From a virus: a stretch of 64,000 nt of DNA. The stretch covers positions 1-64,000 of IMG/VR virus record IMGVR_UViG_3300043256_000348; one strand, 5' to 3'. The notes beneath the pieces were generated by a model. The model searched no databases. It was not told the DNA's origin and saw nothing but the letters and a program-made list of their open reading frames with translations. Position numbers and translations under genes: made by a program. Below are positions 10,332 to 37,490 of the stretch, one piece after another (within the stretch, counting starts at the first letter, position 1; every line of letters begins with the position of its first letter).

Positions 10332-11015
10332 ATGATCCAAGTCGGCATCACCGCATCGCCCCGGCCCGTGGACTACCTGCCGGCCACCGTGGCGAGCCTC
10401 CGGGCCGCCGGCTGGCCCGATCCCGTAGTGTTCGCCGAGCCCGGCACGCCCGCACCCCCGGACTGCCGCTTTGTCGCCGCCCAGCGCCGCCTGGAGCCGT
10501 GGTTTGCCTTCCAAACGGCTCTCGGCAGCCTCTTGGCAACCGGCCCGCAGGGAGCGAGCCTGGCCATCTTTCAGGATGATGTGCTCGCGGCCCGGAACCT
10601 GCGGGCGTGGCTGGACGCAGAGCCGTGGCCCCCGGACGCGGGGGTGGTGTCGCTCTACCTGTCGGAGGCGCAGGCGGAGGGGCGGCCGCTCGGCTGGTCT
10701 GCCCTCGACCCGGACGCCAACCCCTACGGGGCCTGCGGGGTCGTGATGAGGCCGGAGGTCGCCCGGAGGCTCTTGGACGACCCTCCCCACCGGGGCAACG
10801 GCCGGATGACGGACACCTGGCTCGGCGTGTTCTGCGAGCAGGCCGGGCTACGGTTTTGGCAACACAAGCCGAGCCTGATCCGGCACGTCGGCCGGGAATC
10901 TTCGCTGTCGCGGAAGGGGCACAGGCCGATCGTCCGGCCGTGGATTCCCGCTAGGCACGAAGGGGATTTCGTCGAGGACGCCGCGCTGTTAGCCCACGGG
11001 CGGATCACGGTATAA
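10332..11015 (+). CDS. Glycosyltransferase, GT-A fold (GT2/GT25-like)
   Basis: LAIFQDDV DxD-type motif; YGACGVVM; PSLIRHVG. Confidence 0.7.
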   Translation: MIQVGITASPRPVDYLPATVASLRAAGWPDPVVFAEPGTPAPPDCRFVAAQRRLEPWFAFQTALGSLLATGPQGASLAIFQDDVLAARNLRAWLDAEPWPPDAGVVSLYLSEAQAEGRPLGWSALDPDANPYGACGVVMRPEVARRLLDDPPHRGNGRMTDTWLGVFCEQAGLRFWQHKPSLIRHVGRESSLSRKGHRPIVRPWIPARHEGDFVEDAALLAHGRITV

Positions 11016-11016
11016 T
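11009..11016 (+). promoter_or_regulatory. GGTATAAT -10 element, probable leaderless transcript
   Basis: 6 nt upstream of ATG 11023. Confidence 0.5.
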
Positions 11017-11022
11017 GGGGGC

Positions 11023-11706
11023 ATGGACGGAATCTACAAAGCCTCCGCTGTGGTGCTGAGCTACCGGCGGCCCCGGAACGTCGAGCGGATCGTCGGGGAG
11101 CTTGTCGCCCTGGACTTCGTTGACGAGGTGGTGGTCTGGCACAACGGGCCGCACGAGCAGCCGAAGCTGCCGATGGGCGGGAAGTGCACGATGCTCGCGT
11201 GGGGCGAGAACAAGTTCGTCTACGCCCGGTTCCTGGCGCTGCGGTTCTGCCAGCATAACATAATACTAACGGTCGACGATGACTGTCTTGTTAAAAATTG
11301 GAGGGCGATCCTGGACGAGCACCTGTCGCACCCCGAGGTCGTCACGGCAGGCCTGACGCCGGGACACTACAACGCAGACAAGAACAACCGCTGGCGAACT
11401 TGCCACGAGATTCTACTTGGTTGGGGAGCCTGCTTCGACAAGCGGCTGGTCGAGCCGACGCTGGCGAAGTACATCGATGTCCACGGCCACGACGAGATAC
11501 TCCACCGCAAAGCGGACCGGCTGTTCACGATGCTGCTGAACCGGCACCACAACGTGCTCAAGGCGGACGCGGAAGAGTTGCCCTTGGCGCGCGACGATGA
11601 CGTGGCCCTGTACCGGCGAGAGGACCACTACCCTTTGACGATCGAGGCCCGGCGGCGGGCGTGGAAGATACTCGGCATGAGCCCCAACGATGGAGCCACC
11701 GGATGA
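11023..11706 (+). CDS. Glycosyltransferase, GT-A fold (GT2/GT64-like)
   Basis: VVLSYRR, EVVVWHN, ARF...ILTVDDDCLV motifs. Confidence 0.8.
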   Translation: MDGIYKASAVVLSYRRPRNVERIVGELVALDFVDEVVVWHNGPHEQPKLPMGGKCTMLAWGENKFVYARFLALRFCQHNIILTVDDDCLVKNWRAILDEHLSHPEVVTAGLTPGHYNADKNNRWRTCHEILLGWGACFDKRLVEPTLAKYIDVHGHDEILHRKADRLFTMLLNRHHNVLKADAEELPLARDDDVALYRREDHYPLTIEARRRAWKILGMSPNDGATG

Positions 11707-12632
11707 AGCTGCTGATCCTATACGACCGCGACGGCTGGGCATATTGCAGACGGGCGGAGGCTTTGCGGAAGCATTCGCCGGAGGGCTGGCAAGTCACAGT
11801 GGCCCGGCTCGGCACTTCATGGCCAGACATGGGCAGTCCCGCAGACATCACCCTTTTACTTGATTACGCCAGCATCGTACCTATCCGACACCGGATGATT
11901 CACGGATGGACTTGCCCGCTTGTCGTCTCGTTCAACGCCGGCCCGATGCGCCGCCGGGGCATGTGGCAACGGGTCTACGACGCGGCCGACTTCGTGATCT
12001 GCAACAGCCAAGCGACATACGAGTCGTGGGGCGAGTATCCCCGGCGGTGCTGCATATCAAACGGCGTGGACCTGGAGACGTTCAAGGTCGTCCGGCCGAT
12101 TCAAGAGCGGGCCGACAAGTGCCTCTGGTACGGCCGGGCGAGCAAGCACTGGAAGGGGCTGCGCGAGGTCTTGCAGCCCTTGGCGAAACTGCTCGGCGAG
12201 CACGGCTTCACGTTTGACTTCCGTGAGCTGCCGGCCGGCGACCCGCCGATGGACACGCCGGGGCTTGTCGAGTGGTACAATTCCGGGGCGTACGTCTTGT
12301 GCGCGAGCGAGGCCGGGTACGAGGGCACGCCGAATCTGGTCACGGAGGCGGTGGCCTGCGGGTGCGTGGCCGTGACGACGCGGACGGGCAACGTGCTGGA
12401 GTGGGGCGTGGACGGCGAGAACTGCCTGCTGGCGGACCGCAACCCGGTGTCGTTCCTGGATAAGCTGTTTGAGGCGCGGGCTCGGCGGGCGGAGCTGTCG
12501 AAGGCCGGCGTCGCTGCGTTGCAGTCATGGGACTGGGGCGAGCGGGCCCCGTGGTTCTACCGGCTGTTCGGTCGGATCGTAAACGAGGGGGCTGGGGCCG
12601 TCGAGCCGTTCAGCTATATGGACAACGGCTAG
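11703..12632 (+). CDS. Glycosyltransferase, GT-B (GT4-like)
   Basis: ISNGVDLETF; YEGTPNLVTEAVACG Ex7E motif. Confidence 0.85.
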   Translation: MKLLILYDRDGWAYCRRAEALRKHSPEGWQVTVARLGTSWPDMGSPADITLLLDYASIVPIRHRMIHGWTCPLVVSFNAGPMRRRGMWQRVYDAADFVICNSQATYESWGEYPRRCCISNGVDLETFKVVRPIQERADKCLWYGRASKHWKGLREVLQPLAKLLGEHGFTFDFRELPAGDPPMDTPGLVEWYNSGAYVLCASEAGYEGTPNLVTEAVACGCVAVTTRTGNVLEWGVDGENCLLADRNPVSFLDKLFEARARRAELSKAGVAALQSWDWGERAPWFYRLFGRIVNEGAGAVEPFSYMDNG

Positions 12633-12730
12633 GGGTATTTCTAAAATACTGAGCACTTAACTGTTTACGAGGTATAGGGTTACGGGGCGAAAATCCCGCT
12701 ATTAGATTGGGCTCATCCCCAGGTATAATT
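12632..12730 (+). promoter_or_regulatory. 99-bp promoter/operator element, copy A
   Basis: Ungapped 78/99 match to reverse complement of 45573-45671; ends in GGTATAAT. Confidence 0.8.
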
Positions 12731-12737
12731 GAGCATC

Positions 12738-14111
12738 ATGGTGAGTGACTATCAGGCATTCCTTGACAACAAGAGCCAGGGCGGGGAGGACTCCGGATTC
12801 GCCCCCATCTTCCTGCCAGACTTCCTCGTCGACTTCCAGAAGATGCTTACGGAGTGGACTGTACGTAAGGGGCGAGCGGGGCTCTATGCCGATACTGGGC
12901 TTGGCAAGACCCCAATGCAGTTGGTTTGGGCCGAAAACATCCGCCGAAAAACAGGCGGGTCAGTGCTGATCTTGACGCCGCTCGCAGTGTCCCACCAGAC
13001 GGAACGCGAGGGCGAGAAGTTCGGCATCGAATGCAAGCGGTCGCCCGATGGCAAGCACCGGGGCGGGATCGTTATAACCAACTACCAGAGGTTGCACTAC
13101 TTTGACCCCTCTGATTTTGCAGGCTGCGTGTGTGACGAGAGTTCGATCCTAAAGAACTTCGATGGAAAGACCAAGGCGACGGTCACGGAATTCATGCGGC
13201 GGATTCCCTACCGGTTGCTGTGTACAGCCACGGCTGCGCCGAACGACTACTTCGAGCTAGGCACGTCATCGGAGGCCCTAGGCTACCTCGGCTTCCAGGA
13301 CATGCTTACTCGCTTTTTCAAGGAACAGACGAAGAAGGATTATCTCGGCTGGGGTCGGAAGAGCTATAGGTTTCGCGGCCATGCGGAGCAGCCGTTCTGG
13401 AGGTGGGTATGCTCGTGGGCAAGGGCGTGCCGGAAGCCTTCCGACTTCGGATTCGACGACGGCAAGTTCAAGCTGCCTCCGCTAAACGAGGTGGAGCACG
13501 TCATTGAGTGCAGTCGTCCCCGCCCCGGCATGCTGTTCGCCGTTCCCGCGAAGACGCTCGAAGAGCAGAGGGAAGAGCGGCGGCACACCTTGCCCGAACG
13601 GTGTGAGGCGGCTGCGAAGTTGGCTGCCGGCAACGGCTCCGCTTCTGTCGTCTGGTGCCACCTGAACAAAGAGGCCGATCTGATCGAGCGGCTGATACCG
13701 GGGGCGTTGCAGGTCAGCGGCTCCATGTCGGACGACCAAAAAGAGGAAAGGCTGCTGGCGTTTCAGTCGGGCGAGCTACAGAAGCTTATCATCAAGCCGA
13801 AGATCGGAGCGTGGGGGCTGAACTGGCAGCACTGCCACAACATCGTCACGTTCCCATCTCACAGCTTCGAGGCCCACTACCAGTCCGTCCGTCGCTGCTG
13901 GCGTTTCGGACAGGAGCATCCGGTCACGGTCTCAATCATCACTACGGAGGGCGAGCAGGCCGTCCTACGGAACCTGCAACGCAAGGCAAGGCAAGCCGAC
14001 CGGATGTTCGATGCACTGGTGGCCCACATGAACGAGGCAATGCACGTTGACAGGACAACGGAGTTCCCCAAGCAAGAGGAGGTGCCATCGTGGCTGTCAT
14101 CGACCAAGTGA
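12738..14111 (+). CDS. SNF2-like / SF2 helicase (phage type)
   Basis: DTGLGKT, VCDESSILK, TATAAPND, GLNWQHC, QSVRRCWRFGQ motifs. Confidence 0.9.
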   Translation: MVSDYQAFLDNKSQGGEDSGFAPIFLPDFLVDFQKMLTEWTVRKGRAGLYADTGLGKTPMQLVWAENIRRKTGGSVLILTPLAVSHQTEREGEKFGIECKRSPDGKHRGGIVITNYQRLHYFDPSDFAGCVCDESSILKNFDGKTKATVTEFMRRIPYRLLCTATAAPNDYFELGTSSEALGYLGFQDMLTRFFKEQTKKDYLGWGRKSYRFRGHAEQPFWRWVCSWARACRKPSDFGFDDGKFKLPPLNEVEHVIECSRPRPGMLFAVPAKTLEEQREERRHTLPERCEAAAKLAAGNGSASVVWCHLNKEADLIERLIPGALQVSGSMSDDQKEERLLAFQSGELQKLIIKPKIGAWGLNWQHCHNIVTFPSHSFEAHYQSVRRCWRFGQEHPVTVSIITTEGEQAVLRNLQRKARQADRMFDALVAHMNEAMHVDRTTEFPKQEEVPSWLSSTK

Positions 14112-15049
14112 TCGGCGAGCGTTACGCGATTTACAATTCAGATTGTTTGGAGGTTCTACCCACCCTGCCTGACGAGTCGGTCCACCTGTCGATCTACTCT
14201 CCGCCTTTCGCGGCCGACGGGGGCGGCTGTCTTTACCACTACTCCTCGTCCGAACGCGACTTGTCCAACTGCCGGACCCACGCGGAGTTCTTTGAACACT
14301 ACGAGTTCGTGGTGCGCGAGGTCCACCGGCTGACCATGCCCGGCCGGATCAGTGCCGTGCACTGCATGGATATTCCACGGAAGGGAGAGCGGGGGCTGGC
14401 CGATTTCCCCGGTGAGATCATCCGCTTGCATGAGAAGCTCGGCTGGTGGTTCTGGGCTCGTCATTTCGCGTGGAAGGAACCGCTCGGCGTTCGCAACCGG
14501 ACGATGGCAAGGGGGCTGGCCCACCGGCAGGTCGTCGAGGATTCGTCGCTGTGCGATGTAGCGTCGGCTGACCACCTGTTGCTGTTCCGGAAGAAAGGCG
14601 ACAACCCGGTGCCGATAGAGCACCCGACCGGCTTGCAAGAGTACGCCGGCGAGCGAGAGGTGCCGCACGAGCTTTTATCGTACCGGAACTGGGAGGGCAA
14701 GCAACGCGACAACCGCTATTCCCACTGGATCTGGCGGCAGTATGCCTCGGCATTCTGGGACGACATACGGATCGAGAGGACGCTGCCGTACAAAGAGAGC
14801 AAGCAGGGTGACGACGAAAGGCATGTGCACCCTTTGCAACTTGACGTGATCGACCGGCTGTTGGTATTACGGTCGAATCCCGGCGAGACGGTGCTCACCC
14901 CGTTCATGGGCATCGGGTCCGAGGTCTACGGGGCGTTAGTGAACAACCGGAGGGGCGTGGGGATCGAACTCAAGGCAGCCTACTACAATCAGGCGAAGAA
15001 AAACGTGGAGGCAGCCCTTGTCAACGAGCGGGAAGGATTGCTGTTCTGA
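14090..15049 (+). CDS. DNA methyltransferase (N4-cytosine/N6-adenine)
   Basis: YSPPF catalytic motif; TPFMGIGSE SAM-binding motif; GVGIELK. Confidence 0.9.
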   Translation: MAVIDQVIGERYAIYNSDCLEVLPTLPDESVHLSIYSPPFAADGGGCLYHYSSSERDLSNCRTHAEFFEHYEFVVREVHRLTMPGRISAVHCMDIPRKGERGLADFPGEIIRLHEKLGWWFWARHFAWKEPLGVRNRTMARGLAHRQVVEDSSLCDVASADHLLLFRKKGDNPVPIEHPTGLQEYAGEREVPHELLSYRNWEGKQRDNRYSHWIWRQYASAFWDDIRIERTLPYKESKQGDDERHVHPLQLDVIDRLLVLRSNPGETVLTPFMGIGSEVYGALVNNRRGVGIELKAAYYNQAKKNVEAALVNEREGLLF

Positions 15050-15206
15050 CGAGTGGAGTGAGGGCCCGGCTATAAACTACGTTCCGATCTGCAAGCACCC
15101 GCGAGACTTCATGTTCACGATGGGACCGTTGGGGTACGAGCTGGTTGATGTGGTGACGGAATCGCCCATACTAATTCGGACGGACAAGCCGAAACCGGAG
15201 GGACGA

Positions 15207-15932
15207 GTGACCGACCGACGGAACGACCTACCGCTACGGCCCGTGCCCCGAGAGGACTGGCAGCAGGACTTCGACCGCCTGATGCGGGACGAATACCTTC
15301 GCCGGAAGTACGAGCGGACGGCGAGGGTGGCCGAGCACCTGGCCTACATCCGCTACCACTGCCCGGAGCTGACGAAGAGCGGCGAGGGGCTGGTTGTGGA
15401 CGTGGGCCCCGGCCCGGGCGAGTTTCTGGAATGGTGCCGCAAGTTCGGTTGGAAGACGCTCGGCGTGGAGGCGATGAGCGGGGCGGGCGGCATGGGGGAT
15501 GGCTACCTGCAACTGTCGAGGCTGATGCTCGAGCGGCAGGGGATCGACGTGCGGTACTGCGGCTGGAGGCAGTTCGTCACGCACCTGCAAGCCGACTCGT
15601 GCGAGCTGGAGGTGGCGTTCTTCGGGTTCCGCGGGTCATGGGCCCAGTGCTACGCGGAGTTCGTCGGCGGACCGCCTCACCATACGCACCACGACGTAAA
15701 GCGTCAGTTCTGGCAGTTCGACTACCACCTTCGCTCGGCCTGGCTGGACGCTTTCGAGGCGATGGAAAAGCGGCTCGTGTGTGGCGGTTCCGTACTGATC
15801 GCAGCGAACAGGCTCGGCGAGCAGTCCGGGCAGGACCAATACTGCCGGGAGATACGACGGGTTGCGGAGCGTGCTGGGCTGACGTTGGTTAAGCGCGAGG
15901 ATAACTGGGTCCACCAGTGGAGGAAAGCATGA
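15207..15932 (+). CDS. Class I SAM-dependent methyltransferase-like protein
   Basis: RBS GGAGGG then GTG 15207; VVDVGPGPGEFL motif I. Confidence 0.65.
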   Translation: MTDRRNDLPLRPVPREDWQQDFDRLMRDEYLRRKYERTARVAEHLAYIRYHCPELTKSGEGLVVDVGPGPGEFLEWCRKFGWKTLGVEAMSGAGGMGDGYLQLSRLMLERQGIDVRYCGWRQFVTHLQADSCELEVAFFGFRGSWAQCYAEFVGGPPHHTHHDVKRQFWQFDYHLRSAWLDAFEAMEKRLVCGGSVLIAANRLGEQSGQDQYCREIRRVAERAGLTLVKREDNWVHQWRKA

Positions 15933-16468
15933 CAGCTATCGTCGCGATCAAAACCAGCAGCCGCGTGGTGATGGGCTGCGACTCGGCGGCCATTGGCGGT
16001 TGGCACCTGCAATTACGAGCGGATCCCAAGGTTTTCCGTGTCGGCCAGTTCCTACTCGGTTGCTGCGGGTCGATTCGGATGGCGCAACTGCTTCAATTCG
16101 GCGAAGGCCGGTTGTCGCTGAGGTCGCTCCGGCCGAGGGGCGACAGCCTGACATTCATGGTCCGGCACTTCGTCCCGAAGATGCGGGCGATCCTCAAAAA
16201 GGGCGGGTACGCCAAGGTACTGAATAACGTGGAGGAGACCGGGGAGTTTCTGATTGCTTGGCGGAATCACTTATTTACTATCCACGCCGACATGCAGGTG
16301 GCGCAGCTTCACGATCACTATGCGGCTTGCGGCTGTGCCTGGGAGATCGCGCTGGGATCGTTGTTCAGCACCCACGGCCGAGCGGAGGAGCGCATCGCGC
16401 TGGCCCTCGAAGCAGCGGAGCATTGCTCAGCCGGAGTGCGGCGGCCCTTTGTGATCGAGAGCACATGA
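15929..16468 (+). CDS. Ntn-hydrolase, HslV/proteasome beta-like peptidase
   Basis: M-T-A-I-V-A N-terminal Thr nucleophile, MGCDS, PKVF, IALGSL, ALEAA. Confidence 0.7.
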   Translation: MTAIVAIKTSSRVVMGCDSAAIGGWHLQLRADPKVFRVGQFLLGCCGSIRMAQLLQFGEGRLSLRSLRPRGDSLTFMVRHFVPKMRAILKKGGYAKVLNNVEETGEFLIAWRNHLFTIHADMQVAQLHDHYAACGCAWEIALGSLFSTHGRAEERIALALEAAEHCSAGVRRPFVIEST

Positions 16469-17061
16469 CGTTCAAGTGGAGGAACGTGATCCCTGGACAG
16501 ACGCGGAGCGGGCTGTTCATCCACATCCCCCGGACCGGCGGCCGCGCCCTGTTGCGGGTGCTCAACTGCCCCAGCTCGCACTACCCGGCTGCCGAGCACA
16601 GACGGCGGATACCGGAAGACGTGTGGGACTCGCTCTGGAAGTTCGCCGTCGTGCGGAACCCCTGGGACCAGTACGTCTCGATGTGGCTCTGCTCACACGG
16701 GCGCGGGGACCCCGGCGATCTGCACGGCGAGGTCCCCGTGTTCCGCCGCTGGATCGCCGAGGGCGGGCTGAGCTTGAAAATCTGGGGCGGCAGTACGCGG
16801 ATAAGCGCGGTTGACCAAATGGCCTTCATCACCGACAATGACGGCAAGCTGCTGGTGGATCGCGTATATGTCTTCCCACGGTTACAAGACGCTGCCGATG
16901 ACGCCCACCGGATACTGAAGATACGTGCGGCGGAGGTGCCCCACGTGGGCCGCTCGCCGCGGCTGCACTACCGGGAATACTACGACGACGAAAGCAGGCG
17001 GGCCGTAGCCGAGTGGCGGAAGGCCGAGATTAAGCACTTCGGATTCGAGTTTGGGAAATGA
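16465..17061 (+). CDS. Sulfotransferase (family 2-like)
   Basis: FIHIPRTGG 5'-PSB and VVRNPWDQYVS 3'-PB motifs; YREYYD...FGFEF C-terminus. Confidence 0.85.
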   Translation: MTFKWRNVIPGQTRSGLFIHIPRTGGRALLRVLNCPSSHYPAAEHRRRIPEDVWDSLWKFAVVRNPWDQYVSMWLCSHGRGDPGDLHGEVPVFRRWIAEGGLSLKIWGGSTRISAVDQMAFITDNDGKLLVDRVYVFPRLQDAADDAHRILKIRAAEVPHVGRSPRLHYREYYDDESRRAVAEWRKAEIKHFGFEFGK

Positions 17062-18056
17062 GCAAGACAGCGATGATAACCGGGGCGGGCGGGCAAGACG
17101 CCGCGTGGCTGGCCAAGCTGCTGCTGTCGAAGGGCTACCGCGTCTGCGGCACGGTCCGCCGGCATTCTGTGGCCGAGACCCAGGACTGGCGGCTGAAGCA
17201 GTTGGGTATCGCTGACCAGGTGGAGACGTGCTACGCTGACCTGACCGACTACGGCTCGATCGTGGACGCCGTGCAGCGGTTCGAGCCGGACGAGATTTAC
17301 CACCTCGCGTCGATGAGCCATGTTCGCGTCTCATTCGACAAGCCGGTCTACACGGAGCAGGTCAACGCGGGAGGCACACTGCACGTCCTGGAGGCATACC
17401 GGAAGTTCGCGCCGAAGGCCAAATTCTACTTCGCGGCGAGCAGCGAGATGTTCGGCCGGTCGGTCGACCCGGACGGATACCAGAGGCTCACGACGCCGTT
17501 CGATCCGGTGAGTCCGTACGGCGCGGCGAAGGTTTTTGGCTACCACCTCACCCGCCACTACCGCCGGGCCTACGGGCTGTTCGCCGTCAACGGAATCTTG
17601 TTCAACCACACGGGCCCGCTGAGAGGCAGTTCCTTCGTGGAGGCGAAGATCGTCAAGACAGCCGTGCAGATCAAGCGGGGCTTGAAAGATACACTCGTGC
17701 TCGGCAATGTGGATAGTAAGAGGGATTGGGGCGACAGCCGCGATTACGTGAGGGCGATGTGGGCGATGCTCCGTGCACAGGAACCGACCGATTGGCTGAT
17801 TGCCAGCGGGACAACACGGTCAGTCCAGTGTGTCTGTGAAATGGTATTTCGCATGCTTGGCCTGGATTGTTGCGAGTATGTGGAACGAGACAAACGCTAC
17901 GTGCGGCCGGAGGAACTGCCCGTCCTGCGTGGCGATGCCATCAAGGCAAAGACGTTCCTCGGTTGGGAGCCGATGTACAGCTTCCAGCAAACATTGCGGG
18001 AAATGGTCGATCACTGGGAAGGAGTCTTCGATGGAAAGGATATGGTCCAAGGCTGA
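17058..18056 (+). CDS. gmd: GDP-mannose 4,6-dehydratase
   Basis: ITGAGGQDA, SHVRVSF, ASSEMFG, SPYGAAK, NGILFNH, KRDWG motifs. Confidence 0.93.
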   Translation: MSKTAMITGAGGQDAAWLAKLLLSKGYRVCGTVRRHSVAETQDWRLKQLGIADQVETCYADLTDYGSIVDAVQRFEPDEIYHLASMSHVRVSFDKPVYTEQVNAGGTLHVLEAYRKFAPKAKFYFAASSEMFGRSVDPDGYQRLTTPFDPVSPYGAAKVFGYHLTRHYRRAYGLFAVNGILFNHTGPLRGSSFVEAKIVKTAVQIKRGLKDTLVLGNVDSKRDWGDSRDYVRAMWAMLRAQEPTDWLIASGTTRSVQCVCEMVFRMLGLDCCEYVERDKRYVRPEELPVLRGDAIKAKTFLGWEPMYSFQQTLREMVDHWEGVFDGKDMVQG

Positions 18057-18483
18057 GCCGGGCAAGCTGCTGCACTTGATCCACCGCAAAGAGGACTTCG
18101 GAAAGGAAGAGCGGGCAAGGCTTTCACCGTCCGCAGAAACGCTAATGTGCGCCGCAATCAGTATGGATTGCGGCAAAGCGTTCCAGCCGCACCGCCACCT
18201 CCCGCAAGATCGCCAAACAGATCACACGCAAGAAATATGGATTGTGATTCGCGGAATGGTCACTGTGGCATACTACGATACGGACGATTCGTATCTATGC
18301 TCAAGGGACTTGCACGACGGGGACTGCACGATCACGCTGGCCGGCGGCCATGGATACCAAGCTGGCGAAGAAACACTCGTGTATGAAATTAAAACCGGCC
18401 CGTACCACGGAAGGGATCGGGATAAAGTTTACGTTGACGGCGGGGAGTGGGCTAATGATACCGACCACCAACTTGGCGGATGA
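18031..18483 (+). CDS. Cupin-fold sugar-nucleotide-associated protein (WbuC-like)
   Basis: PHRH...TQEIW...GGHGY...YEIKTGPY. Confidence 0.7.
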   Translation: MERIWSKAEPGKLLHLIHRKEDFGKEERARLSPSAETLMCAAISMDCGKAFQPHRHLPQDRQTDHTQEIWIVIRGMVTVAYYDTDDSYLCSRDLHDGDCTITLAGGHGYQAGEETLVYEIKTGPYHGRDRDKVYVDGGEWANDTDHQLGG

Positions 18484-19407: not shown

Positions 19408-19408
19408 C

Positions 19409-20443: not shown

Positions 20444-20444
20444 C

Positions 20445-22674: not shown

Positions 22675-22686
22675 CGGTTAAATAAC

Positions 22687-24021: not shown

Positions 24022-24022
24022 T

Positions 24023-26261: not shown

Positions 26262-26273
26262 GAGGCGTGTTTA

Positions 26274-29725: not shown

Positions 29726-29728
29726 CCA

Positions 29729-30352: not shown

Positions 30353-30705
30353 TTGCGATCCCAACGCAATTCGACGTGAAGAAAGACGACTGGTACGGGG
30401 AAAAACTCTTGCTACCGGATGGATCGCTCGTACTTTTACGTTTCCGCGGCTGGACTGTCGCAACTTCCTTTCCCGGCTGCCATTCATGCCTCGCATTGCA
30501 GTTGACCGGCCGGACCAACGCCTATCGCTACTGCGACGCAGGTGCCGAACACCTCCTATGTGTCAACGTGGCCCCCGGCGTCTGGCCCGCCCTGAAAATT
30601 AAATTCATAGAACGCAGCATGGGCTGGAATGCGTTCTGGACCTACGATGGTTCGCCGTTTCGCGCTGAAGTATACGAGCGGATTGACTTCGGCCGCCTGC
30701 TATGA
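30349..30705 (+). CDS. Hypothetical protein
   Basis: ATGA-coupled on both sides. Confidence 0.5.
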   Translation: MIAIPTQFDVKKDDWYGEKLLLPDGSLVLLRFRGWTVATSFPGCHSCLALQLTGRTNAYRYCDAGAEHLLCVNVAPGVWPALKIKFIERSMGWNAFWTYDGSPFRAEVYERIDFGRLL

Positions 30706-31949
30706 TATTTTTGTTTCATCCAAAGCCCTATCTGATCCAGCCCAACGCACAGGTGGGCCTCGGGCTGCTCTGCTTGGCGACCTACGCGAGGGAGCTTGGG
30801 GCCGAGGTCCGGGTGGTCAACGCGCAGGCGTGGACGATTGACCGGGCAGTGGAAGCGGTGCCGTCGGACGTGACTGTGTGCATGGGCGGCTGCCTGGTCG
30901 ACCGGCCAATCATCGACGATCTCTCAGCGAAGCTGCGGGCGAAGGGATGCTACGTCGTGGCCGGCGGGCCGGTGGCAGACGGCGAGGCCCTGGGGCCGAG
31001 GTGCGCGAGCCTGATCGTGCGGGGCGCAGGGGAGCCGTTCGTCCACCGGTACGTGCAGGAGGGCTGGCGGCCGAAGGGGCGGGTCAACTCACCCTACATC
31101 GTCGACTACGGGGCGTACCCGATCCCCGATCGTCGGCTGCTCGGCGGGCAGTTCGGCGGGAACATCTATCACCCGCGGTCGGGCAGGCAGACGCCGGTAT
31201 CGACCACGCTCCTGACGGCGAGGGGCTGCCGGTACTCGTGCGCCTTCTGCCGGTCGGGCTCCCGCCGCGAGTTCTACGAGTACCCCCGGTCGCGGATTAG
31301 GGCCGAGCTGGAACAGATCGTGGAGCTTGGTATCCGCGACGTGCGGCTGGCGGACGACAACCTGGCATCCGGCCAGTCGAGATTCGCACGCCTGTGTGAG
31401 TTGCTGGGACAGCATGGCATCCACTGGCGGGCGAGCCTACGTACCTATCCTAACGATGTGTCTCTGTACCGGACGATGGCCGAGAGCGGCTGCATAGAGG
31501 TGAGCCTCGGCGTCGAGAGCGCTGACCCCGCCGTGCTGAGGACGCTCCGGAAGGGCAGCCGCGTGGAATCGAACGAGCGGGCCGTGGCGAATGCTGTGGC
31601 CAGCGGAATCCCGCACGTCCGGGCCCTGATGATGATGAGCACGCCAGGGGAGACGGCCGAGACCCTCGACCTGAACAAGCGGTGGGCGGAAGCCCATCCC
31701 GAGGTGACGATCTGCCTAAGCGCCTTCGTGCCGTTCCCAGGCACGGCGATATTCCAATCGCCGGAGCGGTTCGGCTGCCGACTGGAAATGGACCTGGACA
31801 ACCTGAACTTCTTCGCATTCCAGGGCGACGGGGCTTTGCCAGGGGCTCATGTGGGTATAATAAATGGTATGAGCCGTGATGAGCTGACGCGGCAGTTGCG
31901 GGCTTTCCGGGGATTTCTCGAAGAGCGGGGACAGATCAATGAAGGATAA
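30702..31949 (+). CDS. B12-binding radical SAM protein
   Basis: LGLLCLATY and VAGGP (B12 domain); RGCRYSCAFC; LGVESAD; PFPGT. Confidence 0.92.
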   Translation: MIFLFHPKPYLIQPNAQVGLGLLCLATYARELGAEVRVVNAQAWTIDRAVEAVPSDVTVCMGGCLVDRPIIDDLSAKLRAKGCYVVAGGPVADGEALGPRCASLIVRGAGEPFVHRYVQEGWRPKGRVNSPYIVDYGAYPIPDRRLLGGQFGGNIYHPRSGRQTPVSTTLLTARGCRYSCAFCRSGSRREFYEYPRSRIRAELEQIVELGIRDVRLADDNLASGQSRFARLCELLGQHGIHWRASLRTYPNDVSLYRTMAESGCIEVSLGVESADPAVLRTLRKGSRVESNERAVANAVASGIPHVRALMMMSTPGETAETLDLNKRWAEAHPEVTICLSAFVPFPGTAIFQSPERFGCRLEMDLDNLNFFAFQGDGALPGAHVGIINGMSRDELTRQLRAFRGFLEERGQINEG

Positions 31950-32193
31950 CAGCGAGCAGCCGCCAGATCCTCTTGTGGACCGATTGGCTTGTGCCCTGAA
32001 ACGTGAATTGAATGTGTGGACTGAAACCGACAGCCGTATCCTTGAGGTGACCAAGGGAACGTGGCTACGGGCTCGCGTCGAATGCCGATTGGCATTGGAA
32101 GACTTGCGGACGGCAATTCGCAACGAATATCAACGCACTGCTATCGTCCTGGGTAAATGGCTTCTGGCTTTGTGGCGACGAAAGAAACCGTGA
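31939..32193 (+). CDS. Small hypothetical protein, paralog of 57551-57769
   Basis: ALKRELNVW...TKGTWLRARVECRLA. Confidence 0.7.
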   Translation: MKDNSEQPPDPLVDRLACALKRELNVWTETDSRILEVTKGTWLRARVECRLALEDLRTAIRNEYQRTAIVLGKWLLALWRRKKP

Positions 32194-32227
32194 ATCCAGG
32201 CGTTCCTTGAAGAGAGAGGACAGATCA

Positions 32228-32959
32228 ATGTCGGATAGGGAGCCGAAGTTTCAGGTTGGGGACCTTGTGCGTCACCGGGCGAGCGGTACGCCGGTCGTGA
32301 TCAGTCAGGTGCATACCGGATGCAAACTACATGGCTCCGGTACCGCCTCTTGTAGCGTAAACTGCGGGTCAGGCGCGTTCATTGGCTCCTATACGCTCCA
32401 TAGGGAATTCGGTGATTCATTTTCGTGTGACGAACTGCTCTTAGAATTAGCAGAGATAGACTCGCCGGAACCGTCCCCTAAACCAGAACCACCCAAGATA
32501 GAGGTTCTCAGGGAAGACCAGACGAGAGTGGAGGAGGCGGGCCCGCGTCAACACCTTCTTTCTGCGGACGATTGCCAGAGAATCCTAAATGAAGTCACCT
32601 GCACTATCGTGAGGCACGCCATTTCGGTAGAGCAGTTATTGCCATGGATAAGACTGGCAGGAAACATGCAGGACAGAGGCATACACGCCCGTACTGCCAG
32701 CGGACTGTTAAACAACGTGATTTCCGGAAGCCCACGCCATCGGGCCAGGGAGATTAAGAGCGAGTATCCTAAACCGGAGCCGCCGGAGAATGATGTTCTC
32801 AGAGAGGACCAAACAAAGGTGGCGAAACCGGAACCCCCTCCCAACCGCGACACGACACAAGGTAAGGTGCCGGAGCCTCCGCCGAACCGCGAAACACGCG
32901 AGGGCGATGTGCCGCCACCGGCAGATTTCGACCCTTACAGAATCCCGAAAGGGAAATGA
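32228..32959 (+). CDS. Hypothetical protein with YodC-like N-terminus and Pro-rich repeats
   Basis: KFQVGDLVRHRASG; repeats PKPEPPxxxVLREDQT and PEPPPNR. Confidence 0.6.
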   Translation: MSDREPKFQVGDLVRHRASGTPVVISQVHTGCKLHGSGTASCSVNCGSGAFIGSYTLHREFGDSFSCDELLLELAEIDSPEPSPKPEPPKIEVLREDQTRVEEAGPRQHLLSADDCQRILNEVTCTIVRHAISVEQLLPWIRLAGNMQDRGIHARTASGLLNNVISGSPRHRAREIKSEYPKPEPPENDVLREDQTKVAKPEPPPNRDTTQGKVPEPPPNRETREGDVPPPADFDPYRIPKGK

Positions 32960-32983
32960 TGCACGAGACATAAGGAATCCAAG

Positions 32984-33247
32984 ATGACTCCCAAGCAAGT
33001 ACACAACGAACTTGAGCTTATGCGCGGCGTTCGCAGTGAAGCCATCACAATCTGCGGCGTTGACGCTACCTTATTGCCCAAAGAAACTTTAATCCTGGCC
33101 TTGCAGGTCCAGGAAGACTCGCACAGGCAGCGACTTGATATGATGAAGAAATCGGCCGGGGTAGGCGGCATGTTGCACGCCGCCGCCCAGTTCGCTAAAG
33201 ACGGGAGGTTGCTTGATGCACGAGAACTGCAAGCTGATCTTCCTTGA
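32984..33247 (+). CDS. Hypothetical protein
   Basis: RBS TAAGGA; flanked by TGATGCACGAGA direct repeats. Confidence 0.5.
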   Translation: MTPKQVHNELELMRGVRSEAITICGVDATLLPKETLILALQVQEDSHRQRLDMMKKSAGVGGMLHAAAQFAKDGRLLDARELQADLP

Positions 33248-33356
33248 CCGCTGCCTCGGCTGTTTCCTGCCGGGGATGTTTATGCTTGCCCCCGGCGACT
33301 GGCGGGGACCGGACACGGTGCATGTTGACTCCCTGCTGATTGCGAGGAAGCCATGA
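33216..33356 (+). pseudogene. Possible internally deleted methyltransferase remnant (46 aa)
   Basis: RBS GGAGG; MHENCKLIF...PGM start and DSLLIARKP end resemble termini of class I methyltransferases (from recall). Confidence 0.3.
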
Positions 33357-33826
33357 GATTCGTCTTCGGTTGGTTGTCATGCCTGCTCGGTCTGCACCGG
33401 AAGGTCTACTGGTCGCCGGAAGACTGTGAACGTGAGCGAGCCATGGGCGGCATGTGTACGCCCTGGTCATGTTCACGTTGCGGCCACCAATCACAGATAT
33501 TCCGTTATCCTCTGTGCCCGCCTCGGCCTGGACGGGAAGCCATGAGTGATTCAGTCGGTGACCGGATCGTTGAGGGGCTGCAAGACTTCACCGAAACTCT
33601 GAAGTGCTACAGAGGAGAATCGCTGGAGAAATTGTATTCCATTATCGCCATCCACCCATTGGCCGTCGGCATTCATACATATCCGCATGCCGACAAGAAC
33701 AACCAACGTATCCACGCAGGTTGCGAAGAGCTTGAGCGGCAGGGCAGGATCTACCGCAAGACTGACGAGCCGAATCACTGCTTCTGGCTGCCGACAAAAC
33801 AAGAGGACACTACCGATGGCGACTGA
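33353..33826 (+). CDS. Hypothetical protein, possibly two fused cassettes (second start 33542)
   Basis: GGAAGCCATGAG occurs at both 33346 and 33535, with in-frame ATGs. Confidence 0.45.
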   Translation: MRFVFGWLSCLLGLHRKVYWSPEDCERERAMGGMCTPWSCSRCGHQSQIFRYPLCPPRPGREAMSDSVGDRIVEGLQDFTETLKCYRGESLEKLYSIIAIHPLAVGIHTYPHADKNNQRIHAGCEELERQGRIYRKTDEPNHCFWLPTKQEDTTDGD

Positions 33827-34778
33827 CATCCGACTCGCCTTCGTGTTCAACCCCGACAACCCGTACCTCTGCGGCAAGCGATACCAGGTGAACTTCCGCA
33901 AGTGGTTCCTGGAGGCGCTGCCACGTGCCGAGGGTCTGCGGGTGGACTTCATCACCAACGCCCAGCGGCTGGACTTGCAGCCCGTGTCCAAGCTGTACGA
34001 CGCCTGGCTCTTCTTCGACGCGATGGAGTGGGGCCTGCCGCCTGTGCTCACCGGGGTCGATAAGATCAAGGCCGTGAAGGTCTGCCACATCGGGGACGCG
34101 CACGGCGTCAACAAGCTATCGAAGGCGTTCGGCGGCACGAAGCTGGACTGCTGCCAGCGGTTCGGCTTCGACTACTACTTCTTCCAGCACTCGCCGAGCT
34201 ACTTTTACCGGCACTACCCGGCCGACTTCCGCTACTGGTGGATTCCGATGGGGGTGGACGCGGAGCTGTACCGCGAGGTCAAGCCGTGGAGCGAGCGGCG
34301 GTTCGATAAGGTGCTGCTGACCGGCTGCCTTGGGTCGGAGTATTATCCACTGCGAACGCGGCTCGCCGATCACCCAATGGTCCGCTATGAGAAGCCCGGA
34401 TCGTACAGCGGGTGGGACAGCTACGCACCGGGCAAGTGGGACGAGGATCGGTACAAGCTGCTGCTGGAAGAGTGGGGGGCATCGATCGCGTCCGGCTATT
34501 CCGTGGTGAATAAGTATTTCGAGATACCGGCTGCGGGGTGTTTGACGTTCGCGCACATCGACGGGGACAACGGATGCGGCGTGATAGAATTCGATCCGGA
34601 CGAAGTGGTGCTGGTCAACAACGCGACGGCCGACGCGAAGATTGCTGAGTTCTTGGAGAGGCCGGCTGATCCGAAGTGGAACGTCCGGGCCGCCCTCGGC
34701 CGAAACTACGTGATGGAAAACTTTTGCCACGACAAGACCGTGCAGATGCTTGTCGAGAAACTGAGGGAGGCGTTATGA
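33816..34778 (+). CDS. Glycosyltransferase (CgeB/Glyco_trans_1_2-like)
   Basis: VLLTG...YYPLR; VNKYFEIPAAGCL. Confidence 0.8.
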   Translation: MATDIRLAFVFNPDNPYLCGKRYQVNFRKWFLEALPRAEGLRVDFITNAQRLDLQPVSKLYDAWLFFDAMEWGLPPVLTGVDKIKAVKVCHIGDAHGVNKLSKAFGGTKLDCCQRFGFDYYFFQHSPSYFYRHYPADFRYWWIPMGVDAELYREVKPWSERRFDKVLLTGCLGSEYYPLRTRLADHPMVRYEKPGSYSGWDSYAPGKWDEDRYKLLLEEWGASIASGYSVVNKYFEIPAAGCLTFAHIDGDNGCGVIEFDPDEVVLVNNATADAKIAEFLERPADPKWNVRAALGRNYVMENFCHDKTVQMLVEKLREAL

Positions 34779-35791
34779 GAATCCTAGTCTTGTGCCCACA
34801 ACCGCTTTGGGGCAGCCGATTATCCGCCAGTCGCCGGCACGACGTGAAGGCCCTGGAGCGACGGCCCGACGTGACGCTGAAGATGTCCGGCTACGGCTGG
34901 CCGGACTGGCAACAAAACGACACTGCCCTGGCGAACGTGCGGCGGATCATGCGCGACGCGGACTGCGTGTACACCTATAAAATCGGAGGCAACCCCCGCA
35001 AGGGAGTGCCGGCGGCGAACGATCCCGGCAGTATAGCGGACGGCTACCTCGTTGTCCAGAAATGGCAGGAAATGTGGTGGACCGGCACGGGGCCGAACGA
35101 TCCGGAGCCGGCGTGGAAGCAGGCTGTCGCCGAGCGTGTCGGCTTGGCGATTCTATCCCACGCGAACGACGTGCCCCGGATGATGGAGGCTGCCAAGCGG
35201 GGCGTGCAGGTCGCGGTGATCCCCCACGCCGCCGAGCCCCAGGTGTTCGCCCAAGCAGCACAGGAATGGCCCGGCCGCAAGATCGACGTGCTGTTGACGG
35301 GGAGCATCGGCGAGAACCACTACCCCCTGCGGGGCCGCTGGCAGAAGCTCATGCAGGACGGCAGGCTGCCGGGGGCGTGCTACCAGCATCCGCACCCGGG
35401 CTACTGGTTCAACGGCGAGCAGCAGGCCGAGGCCCGGGTCCGCGACTACGCACAGAACCTCGGCAAGTCGAAGATCGTGCTGGGCTGCACGAGCCGCCAC
35501 AGGTATGAACTGGCCCGCTTCCCGGAGGCCGCGATGGCGGGGGCCATCCACGTCTCGGACATGCCGGAGATTCCGCTGAAGGGATACGAGGATTTCATCG
35601 TGCCGGTCGAGGCTGACTGGTCGGACGAGCGACTGATCCAGACGGTGGCCGACCTTCTGGCGGACAAGCAAAAACTGAGCGTGATGAGCGAGCGGGCGCA
35701 GGCCACTGCCCGGCAGTCGTTCACTTGGGAAAAGTGGGCTGATCGATTCGTGGACGCGGTGAAGCGAACACTAGGAGGACCCAATGGCTAA
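34775..35791 (+). CDS. Glycosyltransferase (CgeB/Glyco_trans_1_2-like)
   Basis: IDVLLTG...HYPLR; SKIVLGCTS; RFPEAAMAG. Confidence 0.8.
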   Translation: MRILVLCPQPLWGSRLSASRRHDVKALERRPDVTLKMSGYGWPDWQQNDTALANVRRIMRDADCVYTYKIGGNPRKGVPAANDPGSIADGYLVVQKWQEMWWTGTGPNDPEPAWKQAVAERVGLAILSHANDVPRMMEAAKRGVQVAVIPHAAEPQVFAQAAQEWPGRKIDVLLTGSIGENHYPLRGRWQKLMQDGRLPGACYQHPHPGYWFNGEQQAEARVRDYAQNLGKSKIVLGCTSRHRYELARFPEAAMAGAIHVSDMPEIPLKGYEDFIVPVEADWSDERLIQTVADLLADKQKLSVMSERAQATARQSFTWEKWADRFVDAVKRTLGGPNG

Positions 35792-36143
35792 CCAGCTTAA
35801 AGACTGGAAAGACGACTACGATTGGAAGAATGCGTTTTCCATGGCCGTCGATGGGATAGAGTGCCCTTATGACGTTCGTGGTCCGATCGAAAACGTCCGG
35901 CGGGTTATTGCCTGTGATGAGGGGGAAAACGACGGCGCTGAGTGGATTGCTGTTGTAGAATGGAGCGATGGCAAATTCGCCGTGATGGCCGCTGGCTGCG
36001 ACTACACGGGATGGGACTGCCAGGCCGGGGGAACTATCGAGTTCTACGATAGCGAGGAAGTCGCGTTGGTCGAACTAACGCCCGAACAAGCTGCTCGCTT
36101 AGGCGTGCCCCACGATGCCAATAAAGGAGGACCCGATGCCTGA
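35784..36143 (+). CDS. Hypothetical acidic phage protein
   Basis: RBS AGGAGG; GCDYTGWDCQAGG. Confidence 0.65.
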   Translation: MANQLKDWKDDYDWKNAFSMAVDGIECPYDVRGPIENVRRVIACDEGENDGAEWIAVVEWSDGKFAVMAAGCDYTGWDCQAGGTIEFYDSEEVALVELTPEQAARLGVPHDANKGGPDA

Positions 36144-36543
36144 CCAACTGCAAGCCGGCTCGGAGCTTGTGGCGCGCGTCGCGGTAGAGGTCATGGGCTA
36201 TGAGTGGTGCCCACCTTACACGCCTCGCATCGGCGGGCAGAATCCGCCGTATCATCCTGGCGGTGCATGGAAGCTACCAGACGGGTCATATCGAATCAGC
36301 TTTCGGCCGGACCTGTACTGGTCGGCTGCGGGGGAAGTGCTGGAGAAATTACGAGAGATGTGGACCGAGGCGACCAACGGCGCGAGTGGTTTTGATGACG
36401 ACTTTCCAAAACCCTTCGATGATGGTGCGTTCTTCAATTCGCTGCATCGGCACGCGGATCGGCGATGGCCGTGGGCGTTCTTGTACGCGACGCCCCTGGC
36501 AATCTGCCGGGCGGCCCTGGCTGCCGTGGAGGCAAAGCAATGA
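36136..36543 (+). CDS. Phage ABA sandwich domain-like protein
   Basis: AAGEVLEKL...TPLAICRAALAA signature. Confidence 0.7.
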   Translation: MPDQLQAGSELVARVAVEVMGYEWCPPYTPRIGGQNPPYHPGGAWKLPDGSYRISFRPDLYWSAAGEVLEKLREMWTEATNGASGFDDDFPKPFDDGAFFNSLHRHADRRWPWAFLYATPLAICRAALAAVEAKQ

Positions 36544-37490
36544 GAATCCTCTACCTCAGCAGCCAGCGATGGTATGAGCAGAAGATGGACCGCACTCGCG
36601 TTCTGAATGTCGAGGCCGTACGCAGGCAGCCGAGCGTCAACCTGCACATCTGGGGCAACGGCTGGCCAGATTACGTCGAGGGCGAACTACTGGAGCAAAA
36701 CATCCGCCGCAGGGGCATTGAGTATCCCGACCTTGTGTGGTGCTTCAAGGCGAACGAGCACAAAGGCGTGGCTGAGTTCCCACGGCCGAAAGCCATCGAG
36801 CTAAACGACTGCTACGACGCCAAGATTGCTGACGAGGTACGGGCTGCCGCCCCGTCGCTTGTCGTCTACCACCACGAGAACGACTGGCAATCGGAGAACA
36901 TGAGGGACGGAGCCCGACCGGGGTGTGATTTCATCCACGTTCCGCACTGCGCAGACAAGGCCGTTTTCTACCGCGAGGGCGACTGGGACCGGCCGATCGA
37001 CTGCCTCTTCGCCGGCGCGCTTCACGAGACGATCTACCCGCTCCGCTCGCGGTACGTGCAGCTCATCAAGGGCGGCGCGATTCCAGGCGAGGTCCGCCGC
37101 TTCCCAGGACACCGGACGCGAACTGCCGGTGAGGGGGAGGCCCAGCACCACAGTTTCTCGAACCACCTGCGGCGGTCGAAGGTGGCCCTCTGCTGCTCCT
37201 CGACTTACAAGTACGCCCTAAGCAAGTACGTCGAGGCCATCGCGGCTGGATGCGTGGTGGTGGGCGATATGCCAGACGACCAGTTGTTCCGGGACACGCT
37301 AGGGCGGGCACTCGTTGAGGTGAACAACAGCATGGCAGACGACCAGATCATGCGAATCGTGAAGGAAACACTGGCCGATCCGGCCGAGCTAGAACGGCGA
37401 CGGGAGTTCGGATACGCCGAGTACCTAGCCGCCTACACTACGGAGCACTGGGCTCGCCGGTTTCTGGAGGCTGCCAGTCGAGTCGTTTGA
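36540..37490 (+). CDS. Glycosyltransferase (CgeB/Glyco_trans_1_2-like)
   Basis: IDCLFAG...IYPLR; SKVALCCSS; KYVEAIAAGC. Confidence 0.8.
   Translation: MRILYLSSQRWYEQKMDRTRVLNVEAVRRQPSVNLHIWGNGWPDYVEGELLEQNIRRRGIEYPDLVWCFKANEHKGVAEFPRPKAIELNDCYDAKIADEVRAAAPSLVVYHHENDWQSENMRDGARPGCDFIHVPHCADKAVFYREGDWDRPIDCLFAGALHETIYPLRSRYVQLIKGGAIPGEVRRFPGHRTRTAGEGEAQHHSFSNHLRRSKVALCCSSTYKYALSKYVEAIAAGCVVVGDMPDDQLFRDTLGRALVEVNNSMADDQIMRIVKETLADPAELERRREFGYAEYLAAYTTEHWARRFLEAASRVV

Follow-up and report, generated by a model that had tools for sequence, protein, structure and literature searches.

A 27-kb phage-owned glycan-assembly island in the genome of an uncultured siphovirus-like phage

An uncultured, siphovirus-like phage, IMG/VR virus record IMGVR_UViG_3300043256_000348, carries a large block of co-oriented genes for the assembly and tailoring of glycans. 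The full record is 92,947 bp long, has direct terminal repeats and a completeness rating of 100%, and is a complete phage; the window analyzed here comprises bases 1-64000 of it. Within the window the block, hereafter the island, occupies 10332-37490; its 27,159 bp make up 29% of the genome and 42% of the window, in agreement with the share of over 40% given in a preliminary description of this DNA. The island is best explained as a glycan-assembly module that belongs to the phage and is conserved in its lineage; in this phage, duplications of paralogs have made it larger and unrelated inserts break it up. As for its function, cytoplasmic glycosylation of the phage’s own virion proteins is favored tentatively, with a confidence that falls a little short of an even chance.

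About 38 plus-strand open reading frames (ORFs) were recognized in the island from the ORF listing, the G+C content at third codon positions (GC3) and a codon-usage score, and about 23 of them are glycan-related. These encode twelve glycosyltransferases (GTs), a guanosine diphosphate (GDP)-mannose 4,6-dehydratase (Gmd), a DegT-family aminotransferase, a WbuC-family cupin, a class-B radical S-adenosylmethionine (SAM) enzyme, three or four methyltransferases and two or three sulfotransferases. The GTs fall into two GT-A, four GT4, two NodZ/FUT8-like (GT23-like), one exostosin-like GT-B and three CgeB-like enzymes, and the earlier count of about twelve GTs of at least four types was reproduced with Pfam, profiles, folds and hhalign; paralog groups were taken from all-against-all BLAST. 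Pfam directly supports the four GT4, two Glyco_trans_1_2, Gmd, DegT, one sulfotransferase, two methyltransferases and the radical SAM enzyme. Every glycan gene of the island lies on the plus strand, and neighboring genes mostly overlap by 4 bp or lie no more than 13 bp apart, so the co-orientation and frequent translational coupling described before are borne out. No membrane-type segment (19 residues, mean Kyte-Doolittle hydropathy >=1.6) is present in any of the ~38 island proteins; PF02397, the Bac_transf priming transferase, was unmatched in a six-frame search of the complete genome in which the controls responded, and no Wzx, Wzy, ABC or WecA-type family turned up in general Pfam scans, consistent with the claimed lack of export genes. 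The description of a build-and-decorate island therefore holds for a coherent module, with about a third of the ORFs being unrelated to glycans.

The conservation of the module in other phages is the basis for assigning it to the phage lineage. A capsid protein search of IMG/VR returned three fragments about 77% identical, and the 77%-related fragment G001 spans head genes, tail genes and the start of the island; its first GT lies about 170 bp after the tail genes, and the first three GTs are kept at 80%, 72% and 72% amino acid (aa) identity before the sequence becomes unrelated. The ratio of nonsynonymous to synonymous divergence (dN/dS) could be obtained for these three genes, the ones having a close relative, and is 0.19 (10332), 0.23 (11023) and 0.26 (11703) at a dS of 0.8-0.9, as compared to 0.30-0.34 for two structural-module genes (head-tail/tail region) and 0.36 for the capsid gene; a neutral ratio near 1 was thus not found. 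A value of 2.0 for 6209-7339 was discarded owing to a mis-set start or frame. In L019, a 20.8-kb stretch of a contig of 90,121 bp, about 22 co-oriented genes follow the relative order of the window in a compact form (~17 kb) at 26-52% aa identity. This locus opens with a sulfotransferase, two GT-A enzymes, a methyltransferase like that at 15018, two small R-x-I-tailed proteins, Gmd, the cupin and DegT; it continues with a further GT-A, a GT4, two methyltransferases, a sulfotransferase, a GT23-like enzyme and a hexapeptide-repeat acetyltransferase; and it closes with two GT-B enzymes like that at 24023, a GT4, and a radical SAM gene with a CgeB-like GT on either side, followed by a minus-strand homolog of window 38420-39025. 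Partial versions of the island are seen in L020, with a sulfotransferase-like ORF and adjacent ParB and exonuclease genes, and in L021. The helicase, DNA methylase, proteasome-like and deaminase genes interspersed in the window recur in none of these three loci. As the glycan genes are syntenic in L019 without the DNA-enzyme inserts, they are an old core module owned by the phage lineage and vertically retained for a long time. Compared with L019, the window has three extra GT4/CgeB-like paralogs, one extra GT23-like enzyme and one extra sulfotransferase, plus the inserts. Homologs of island proteins were also seen on contigs of 55 kb and 98 kb.

On the bacterial side, no synteny with the island was found in 401 evenly sampled Planctomycetota genomes. 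A 20-kb DNA query (17058-37057) matched them at Gmd only, with 65-70% similarity over at most 390 bp, and the GT23-like profile gave only weak, partial matches of no more than 58 bits in 7 of the 401. The G+C content of the island equals that of the remaining genome and is uniform over the window. These comparisons, within the sampled genomes, lend no support to the idea that a host locus was transduced recently.

The conserved core opens with the protein encoded at 10332-11015, a GT-A enzyme of GT25/GT2/GnT-I-like fold (ESM Atlas structures, template modeling (TM) score 0.73-0.85) whose closest ESM Atlas clusters (GT25/GT2/GNT-I) are almost all viral, and which has a 39% homolog in L019. It is followed by a sub-threshold GT-A of GT2/GT64-like type at 11023-11706 (Glycos_transf_2 3.3e-4, 21.1 bits against a Pfam cut-off of 23.3), with two homologs in L019, and by a GT4-type GT-B at 11703-12632 (Glyco_trans_1_4 1.5e-8; 35% in L019). 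The latter is a paralog of three tandem GT4-type enzymes at 26274-27245, 27242-28210 and 28203-29201, which match Glyco_trans_1_4 and Glycos_transf_1 at 1e-7 to 1e-10; the trio is 31-33% identical mutually and all four paralogs 27-33%, with one counterpart of the tandem genes in L019 (43%) and at least two in L021. The GT-B at 24023-25048 resembles exostosin, RXYLT1 and Glyco_trans_1_2 proteins through its ESM Atlas matches to Glyco_trans_1_2, RXYLT1_C and GT1 clusters (features 0.96, structure TM 0.58-0.73); two homologs occur in L019 (36%, 40%) and one in L021, and none was matched among INPHARED phages. Three CgeB-like (Glyco_trans_1_2) enzymes complete the set, at 33816-34778 (by hhalign only, probability 95.8%) and at 34775-35791 and 36540-37490 (Pfam 2.9e-8 and 6.3e-12); no relative of the CgeB-like GT denoted 36465 was found in IMG/VR. 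A thirteenth GT lies outside the window at genome 83261-84271 (L024:3261-4271; Glyco_trans_1_2, 55.8 bits), 674 bp downstream of the major capsid gene, with 71% aa identity in both relatives and a dN/dS of about 0.32.

The two enzymes previously called fucosyltransferase-like, at 20445-21215 and 21841-22674, are 34% identical to each other and are predicted to be GT23-like GDP-sugar transferases of the NodZ/FUT8 fold. The family profile (alignment A1, which includes 20445-21215) matched NodZ at 1.3e-7 and FUT8 at 0.008 in the PDB, and Foldseek analysis of an AlphaFold2 (AF2) model of 21841-22674, with a predicted local distance difference test score (pLDDT) of 88, gave NodZ as best match (2.6e-11, TM 0.63), followed by FUT8, AtFUT1 and POFUT1/2. 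The family is rare, with 12 homologs among 5.8 billion proteins; its profile found six loci in JGI metagenomes and no further member in IMG/VR, and 21841-22674 has a 41% homolog in L019. No GDP-fucose synthase was seen in Pfam scans of the genome, and the donor of the pair may be another GDP-sugar.

The genes for such a donor are close by. Gmd, encoded at 17058-18056 (GDP_Man_Dehyd 1.5e-101; TIGR01472 3e-94; 52% identical in L019 and 49% in L020), belongs to a family whose product is GDP-4-keto-6-deoxymannose. Directly after it, as is invariably the case among the relatives, comes the WbuC-family cupin at 18031-18483 (TIGR04366 8.7e-8, 32 bits against a cut-off of 42; 40% in L019, 34% in L020), and further on the DegT-family sugar aminotransferase at 19409-20443 (DegT_DnrJ_EryC1 9.4e-71), whose closest PDB matches are the GDP-perosamine synthases 3BN1, 3DR7 and 3DR4 at 7.6e-38; the presence of all three enzymes is thus confirmed. 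A second epimerase or reductase was unseen in general Pfam scans. L019 has a hexapeptide-repeat acetyltransferase, of the kind that N-acetylates 4-amino-4,6-dideoxyhexoses, and the window is without an N-acetyltransferase. Because DegT resembles perosamine synthases, GDP-fucose synthase is unseen and the acetyltransferase of L019 fits, we infer that the special donor would be a perosamine-like GDP-4-amino-4,6-dideoxyhexose, with the GT23-like enzymes as its transferases. A perosamine-like sugar thus seems more likely than the fucose-like one proposed initially.

Tailoring enzymes are of three kinds, and their earlier counts are reproduced, with some members less certain. Among three claimed sulfotransferases, that at 21212-21844 exceeds the Pfam cut-off (Sulfotransfer_3 6e-8, 33.6 bits against 27) and that at 16465-17061 is supported by PHROG 3347, galactose-3-O-sulfotransferase (1e-7), and by Sulfotransfer_2-like motifs (PRTGG and RNPWDxYVS), with a weak likeness to both sulfotransferase-like ORFs of L019. 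The one at 25045-25734 is weakly sulfotransferase-like: it has PKxGG and RxPxxxxxS motifs, its profiles (A3, A6) reached heparan-sulfate 6-O-sulfotransferase at 0.0046 in the PDB, and 17 of 19 sub-threshold PDB matches were sulfotransferases; homologs are 55-75% identical, one being on a 92,657-bp contig, and its AF2 model was of low confidence (pLDDT 45; 5-sequence alignment) and was not used. Two of four claimed methyltransferases exceed their cut-offs, namely the FkbM-type enzyme at 22687-23313 (Methyltransf_21, 25.7 bits against 22.7) and the Methyltransf_24 enzyme at 23410-24021 (30.3 bits against 26.3; 39% homolog in L019). The class I SAM methyltransferase-like protein of the core at 15018-15932 is below cut-off (Methyltransf_23 8e-5) but conserved (41% in L019, partial in L020), and the candidate at 29729-30352 has a VLDLAGGLG motif only.

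The protein encoded at 30702-31949 is a radical SAM enzyme (Radical_SAM 2.2e-15) of the cobalamin-dependent class B type. Its top NCBIfam models are PhpK (1.7e-26), then HpnJ, ApyD, AprD4, BchE and HpnR, all scoring far under their equivalog cut-offs, with alignments to the class B models starting at about residue 133-170. The class B neighborhood thus agrees with the earlier assignment to a B12 enzyme; a B12-binding domain, by contrast, was not detected, as residues 1-170 had no Pfam match at E<=0.01. A full-length homolog (50%) is in the same place in L019, and the phage collections gave a single 26% match, in Streptomyces phage SF3, where the surrounding genes have no link to glycans. The pathway cannot be called complete, as the preliminary description had it. 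No APS (adenosine 5'-phosphosulfate) kinase was found in the genome, so the host has to supply PAPS (3'-phosphoadenosine 5'-phosphosulfate); it presumably also supplies GDP-mannose, SAM and cobalamin, as general Pfam scans showed neither biosynthesis genes for these nor a sugar-activating enzyme.

The island is interrupted by genes of other functions and by promoter-like motifs, none of which the preliminary description names. The motif GGTATAAT occurs nine times in the window against 0.47 expected, on the plus strand at 11009-11016, 12722-12729, 31854-31861, 46348-46355, 55993-56000 and 61215-61222 and on the minus strand at 10277-10284, 40780-40787 and 45574-45581. It often stands 7-80 nt upstream of a module-leading gene (pilin, helicase, exonuclease/RecT operon, ParB), and an ATG follows within 7-9 nt at 11009 and 12722; this points to a -10 element of phage promoters and perhaps to leaderless starts. 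As the sites at 11009, 12722 and 31854 are inside the island, it is probably more than one transcription unit. The site at 12722-12729 is directly upstream of the first insert, a superfamily 2 (SF2) helicase at 12738-14111 (Helicase_C 8.7e-6), which is followed by an N6/N4 DNA methyltransferase at 14108-15049 (N6_N4_Mtase 2.8e-16). Neither occurs in the syntenic island of L019, and G001 (L013 reverse complement 12269-13099) has a different, DPPY-type DNA methylase after its GT4 homolog, so the slot is variable. A cytidine/deoxycytidine monophosphate deaminase-fold protein at ~18494-18991, of uncertain start (dCMP_cyt_deam_1 6e-14), is likewise absent from L019 and probably serves nucleotide metabolism rather than the glycan. 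Between the core methyltransferase and the first sulfotransferase is a weak N-terminal nucleophile (Ntn)-hydrolase/proteasome-like protein at 15917-16468 (Pfam Proteasome 0.0088 only), with a proteasome/HslV-like signature and no homolog in L019.

From this inventory a mechanism may be proposed. Host GDP-mannose would be converted by Gmd to GDP-4-keto-6-deoxymannose, and by DegT, possibly with the cupin, to GDP-4-amino-4,6-dideoxyhexose. The twelve soluble GTs would then assemble a cytoplasmic oligosaccharide on a soluble acceptor, with the NodZ/FUT8-like pair as natural users of the GDP-sugar, and the product would be tailored by three or four SAM methyltransferases, the cobalamin-type radical SAM enzyme and two or three PAPS-dependent sulfotransferases. 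With no priming transferase and no membrane protein in the island, synthesis would have to start on a soluble acceptor or borrow host lipid-linked intermediates. The acceptors would most likely be virion proteins (capsid, fibers, tail), and the particle would exit with a coat of methylated, sulfated amino-deoxy sugar. Virion acceptors are favored because a GT lies beside the capsid gene, the island comes after the tail module in G001, and fiber-like proteins follow the head genes. These are four large proteins of 425, 529, 492 and 849 aa between the head genes and the terminal repeat (genome 85603-92637; L024:5603-12637), which are beta-helix/fiber-like, rich in Ser/Thr/Gly (16-23% Ser+Thr) and without a Pfam match. 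The first two open with signal-peptide-like hydrophobic segments, an odd feature for virion proteins.

The identity of the sugar, the acceptor and the convergence of all enzymes on a single product are inferred, and several observations weigh against virion glycosylation. No acceptor was identified in the sequence, and neither the capsid C-terminus (...TDGPTSYGN) nor that of the tail tube (...GAITPPTE) has a striking Ser/Thr tail. The internal GGTATAAT motifs leave late co-transcription with the virion genes no more than a possibility, and confidence is lower in the assignments of 11023, 25045, 29729, the cupin and the B12 domain. Lastly, O-antigen and exopolysaccharide (EPS) loci typically contain GT4, GT2, Gmd, DegT and WbuC enzymes, and host carriers and exporters could serve these. 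The same families speak for a remodeling of the host envelope, in which the soluble phage enzymes would produce a novel nucleotide sugar and, on the inner membrane face, extend and tailor host lipid-linked lipopolysaccharide (LPS) or EPS intermediates, and the priming enzymes, flippases and polymerases of the host would export the altered, sulfated polysaccharide, blocking superinfection or altering cell-surface properties as with cyanophage LPS clusters. The largest published phage clusters have been read as surface modification (P-SSM2: PMC1079782, PMC7824862), and a host-type pilin gene adjoins the island. This explanation, the main rival, is nevertheless considered unlikely, though it deserves attention. 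The island is devoid of membrane proteins and the genome of a priming transferase; surface-conversion genes are usually few and host-specific, unlike a module whose order is kept across phages at only 26-52% identity; no similar locus was found in the 401 Planctomycetota genomes; one GT is within the head module; and the close relative G001 is without the pilin.

Alternatively, the region could be a mosaic accessory hotspot of independent auxiliary genes acting on several substrates, such as host glycoproteins or pili, small molecules and lipids. The interleaved helicase, DNA methylase, deaminase, Ntn-like protein and ~11 small orphans would fit, as would the internal promoter-like motifs, the different content past the third GT even in a 77%-identical relative, and the varying copy numbers of GT4 and sulfotransferase genes among relatives. 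It is judged quite improbable, as the glycan gene order is kept in L019, L020 and L021 while non-glycan inserts do not recur, translational coupling is tight, and the chemistry is coherent, with a GDP-sugar pathway adjoining GDP-sugar-type transferases. The helicase, N6/N4 methylase and deaminase-fold protein, together with a Mom-like protein nearby (40797-41372), could instead point to DNA hypermodification, in which sugars on phage DNA bases protect against restriction as in T-even phages; multi-sugar DNA glycans of phages are known (Pyle et al. 2024, as cited in PMC12619734). This is very doubtful: the ThyA family (PF00303) is absent from the complete genome in a search in which the controls responded, ThyX and the deaminase-fold protein would suggest ordinary thymidylate synthesis, the syntenic island of L019 lacks the DNA enzymes, and twelve GTs with sulfation and methylation go far beyond any known DNA modification. 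A search for TET/JBP dioxygenases (PF12851) had no match in the genome, but the control genomes were also silent. If the island were instead an LPS/EPS locus recently acquired from a host by transduction, with no function for the phage, the nucleotide similarity of Gmd to many planctomycete genomes would be accounted for. This is the most remote of these explanations and deserves hardly any weight, given that the rest of the 20-kb query was unmatched and GT23-like matches were weak and partial, that dN/dS is 0.19-0.26 and G+C is as in the rest of the phage, and that the island is syntenic in distant phage contigs.

The remaining ORFs of the island include about 11 small orphans, clustered at 29.2-30.7 and 31.9-33.8 kb. 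For the majority of the orphan ORFs neither PHROGs nor NCBIfam returned a match, Pfam at E<=10 offered only hints, and single-sequence PDB searches of 24023, 20418, 18991, 29729 and 25725 had no match. Between the deaminase-fold gene and DegT, a small protein without family match (18991-19407) has a Pro-rich linker and a C-terminal ...RLITLED tail, and two L019 proteins in the same place (L019:2879-3547 and L019:3550-3924) end in RRISLEE and RRITLEE. These small neighbors of Gmd, the cupin and DegT are otherwise dissimilar, with the Pro-rich linker and an R-x-I-(S/T)-L-E-(E/D) tail in common; the tail could be a docking motif or the proteins a glycan acceptor. A 178-aa protein at 25725-26261 has a strong coding signal and is unmatched in Pfam, PHROGs, NCBIfam and the PDB, and three ORFs without family match, the candidate methyltransferase at 29729-30352 among them, fill 29198-30705. 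Four more, at 31939-32193, 32207-32959, 32984-33247 and 33353-33826, are of lower GC3 and absent from L019. The first of these (84 aa) has a 56%-identical paralog at 57548-57769, in an AAA/DUF1257 region, and in the second (250 aa) the segment PKPEPP...VLREDQT[R/K]V is duplicated and the tail is rich in Pro. Two small ORFs, 35784-36143 and 36115-36543 (Phage_ABA_S-like), separate the last two CgeB-like GTs.

Before the island, at 0.5-6.5 kb, the window encodes a head-tail adaptor, a neck protein, the major tail protein and the tape measure. Beyond it, at 38.4-45.5 kb, the minus strand carries genes for RecT, an exonuclease VIII-like protein, the Mom-like protein, a helicase and ParB. Elsewhere in the genome are genes for the portal, the prohead protease, the capsid, ThyX, RusA and thioredoxin. 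A phage protein at 48168-49154 has a reprolysin-like (M12B) zinc metallopeptidase domain (Reprolysin_3, 3.1e-6). Antisense between the tail genes and the island, and outside the core, is a type IV pilin-like gene at 9298-10242 (minus strand; N_methyl 5e-8), with a 68% aa homolog in an uncultured Planctomycetaceae metagenome-assembled genome and weaker homologs in other Planctomycetia. This homolog supports a Planctomycete host, as first suggested, which is plausible on sequence grounds. The gene is missing in the 77%-related G001 and would therefore have been gained recently. The notion that pilin and island form one system was rejected, since G001 keeps the first three GTs without the pilin.

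Purifying selection and the kept order of more than 20 soluble glycan enzymes argue that complex, charged glycans matter for phage fitness, and a neutral explanation is unlikely given a cost of 29% of the genome. Adsorption, protection from host defenses or grazers, and stability are possible roles; the earlier suggestion that such a coat serves as shield or bait is speculative. In its most far-reaching form, the proposal is that a ~90-kb Planctomycete phage lineage devotes a third of its genome, with more than 20 enzymes, to self-building a methylated, sulfated amino-deoxy-sugar virion glycan, and that this coat might mimic the sulfated polysaccharides eaten by the host so that the nutrient-uptake apparatus becomes the entry route; this is highly speculative and probably incorrect in at least some part. 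The 12-member GT23-like family, the phage GDP-perosamine-like pathway and the phage sulfotransferases are enzymes open to testing. To our knowledge, glycosylation of phage particles has been shown experimentally only for a few mycobacteriophages with few transferases, and glycan factories of many enzymes that work autonomously are seen as characteristic of giant viruses.

The enzyme families, and virus-encoded glycan clusters in giant viruses, cyanophages and mycobacteriophages, are already known. The island resembles the GDP-perosamine branch of O-antigen synthesis in its Gmd and DegT aminotransferase (Caulobacter perosamine synthase, PDB 3BN1/3DR4/3DR7); it differs in that the N-acetyltransferase is found in L019 and not in the window, and its activity and regiochemistry are predicted. 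Compared with a Wzx/Wzy- or ABC-dependent O-antigen/EPS cluster, it is alike in nucleotide-sugar genes and twelve GTs and unlike in its missing priming and export genes. In Che8-type mycobacteriophages, as is proposed here, phage-encoded soluble GTs decorate virion subunits in the cytoplasm. Those systems are not known to use more than a few GTs or to include a nucleotide-sugar pathway, a sulfotransferase or a radical SAM enzyme, and the acceptor tails in them have been identified; the island has 12-13 GTs. Glycans on mycobacteriophage capsid and tail-tube subunits are described by Freeman 2023 (as cited in PMC12619734), and phage Maravista has two GTs (PMC11256854).

Larger clusters are found in cyanophages and giant viruses. 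P-SSM2 carries 24 LPS-type genes in two clusters (PMC1079782), with a main cluster of 15 genes and at least 8 GT families (PMC7824862). Such clusters share with the island large sets of epimerases/dehydratases and paralogous GTs that vary among relatives, and Gmd occurs in many cyanophages. They belong to T4-like myoviruses of more than 200 kb, occupy, by estimate, a far smaller fraction of those genomes and are interpreted as modifying the host surface; sulfotransferases are unreported for them in PMC1079782 and PMC7824862, and Gmd is the only sequence relationship to the island. No description of a phage sulfated-glycan module was found in the literature. The fibril glycosylation clusters of the Megavirinae, of 6-33 genes and variable among clades (Notaro et al. 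2022, PMC10117803; reviewed in PMC9614988), likewise join rare bacterial-type amino-deoxy sugar pathways, many GTs and tailoring enzymes without use of the host secretory route. Those are amoeba viruses with genomes on the megabase scale, and their fibril glycans are chemically characterized; the island belongs to a 93-kb tailed phage and adds sulfotransferases and a cobalamin radical SAM enzyme. The claim of exceptional size thus stands for the share of the genome and not for gene number, which is 24 in P-SSM2 and up to 33 in clusters of the Megavirinae. What sets the island apart is its scale (27.2 kb, 29%), the combination of sulfotransferases with a cobalamin radical SAM enzyme, a rare GT23-like family and deep conservation in a phage lineage; if virion glycosylation is true, it would be the bacteriophage counterpart of giant-virus fibril glycosylation.

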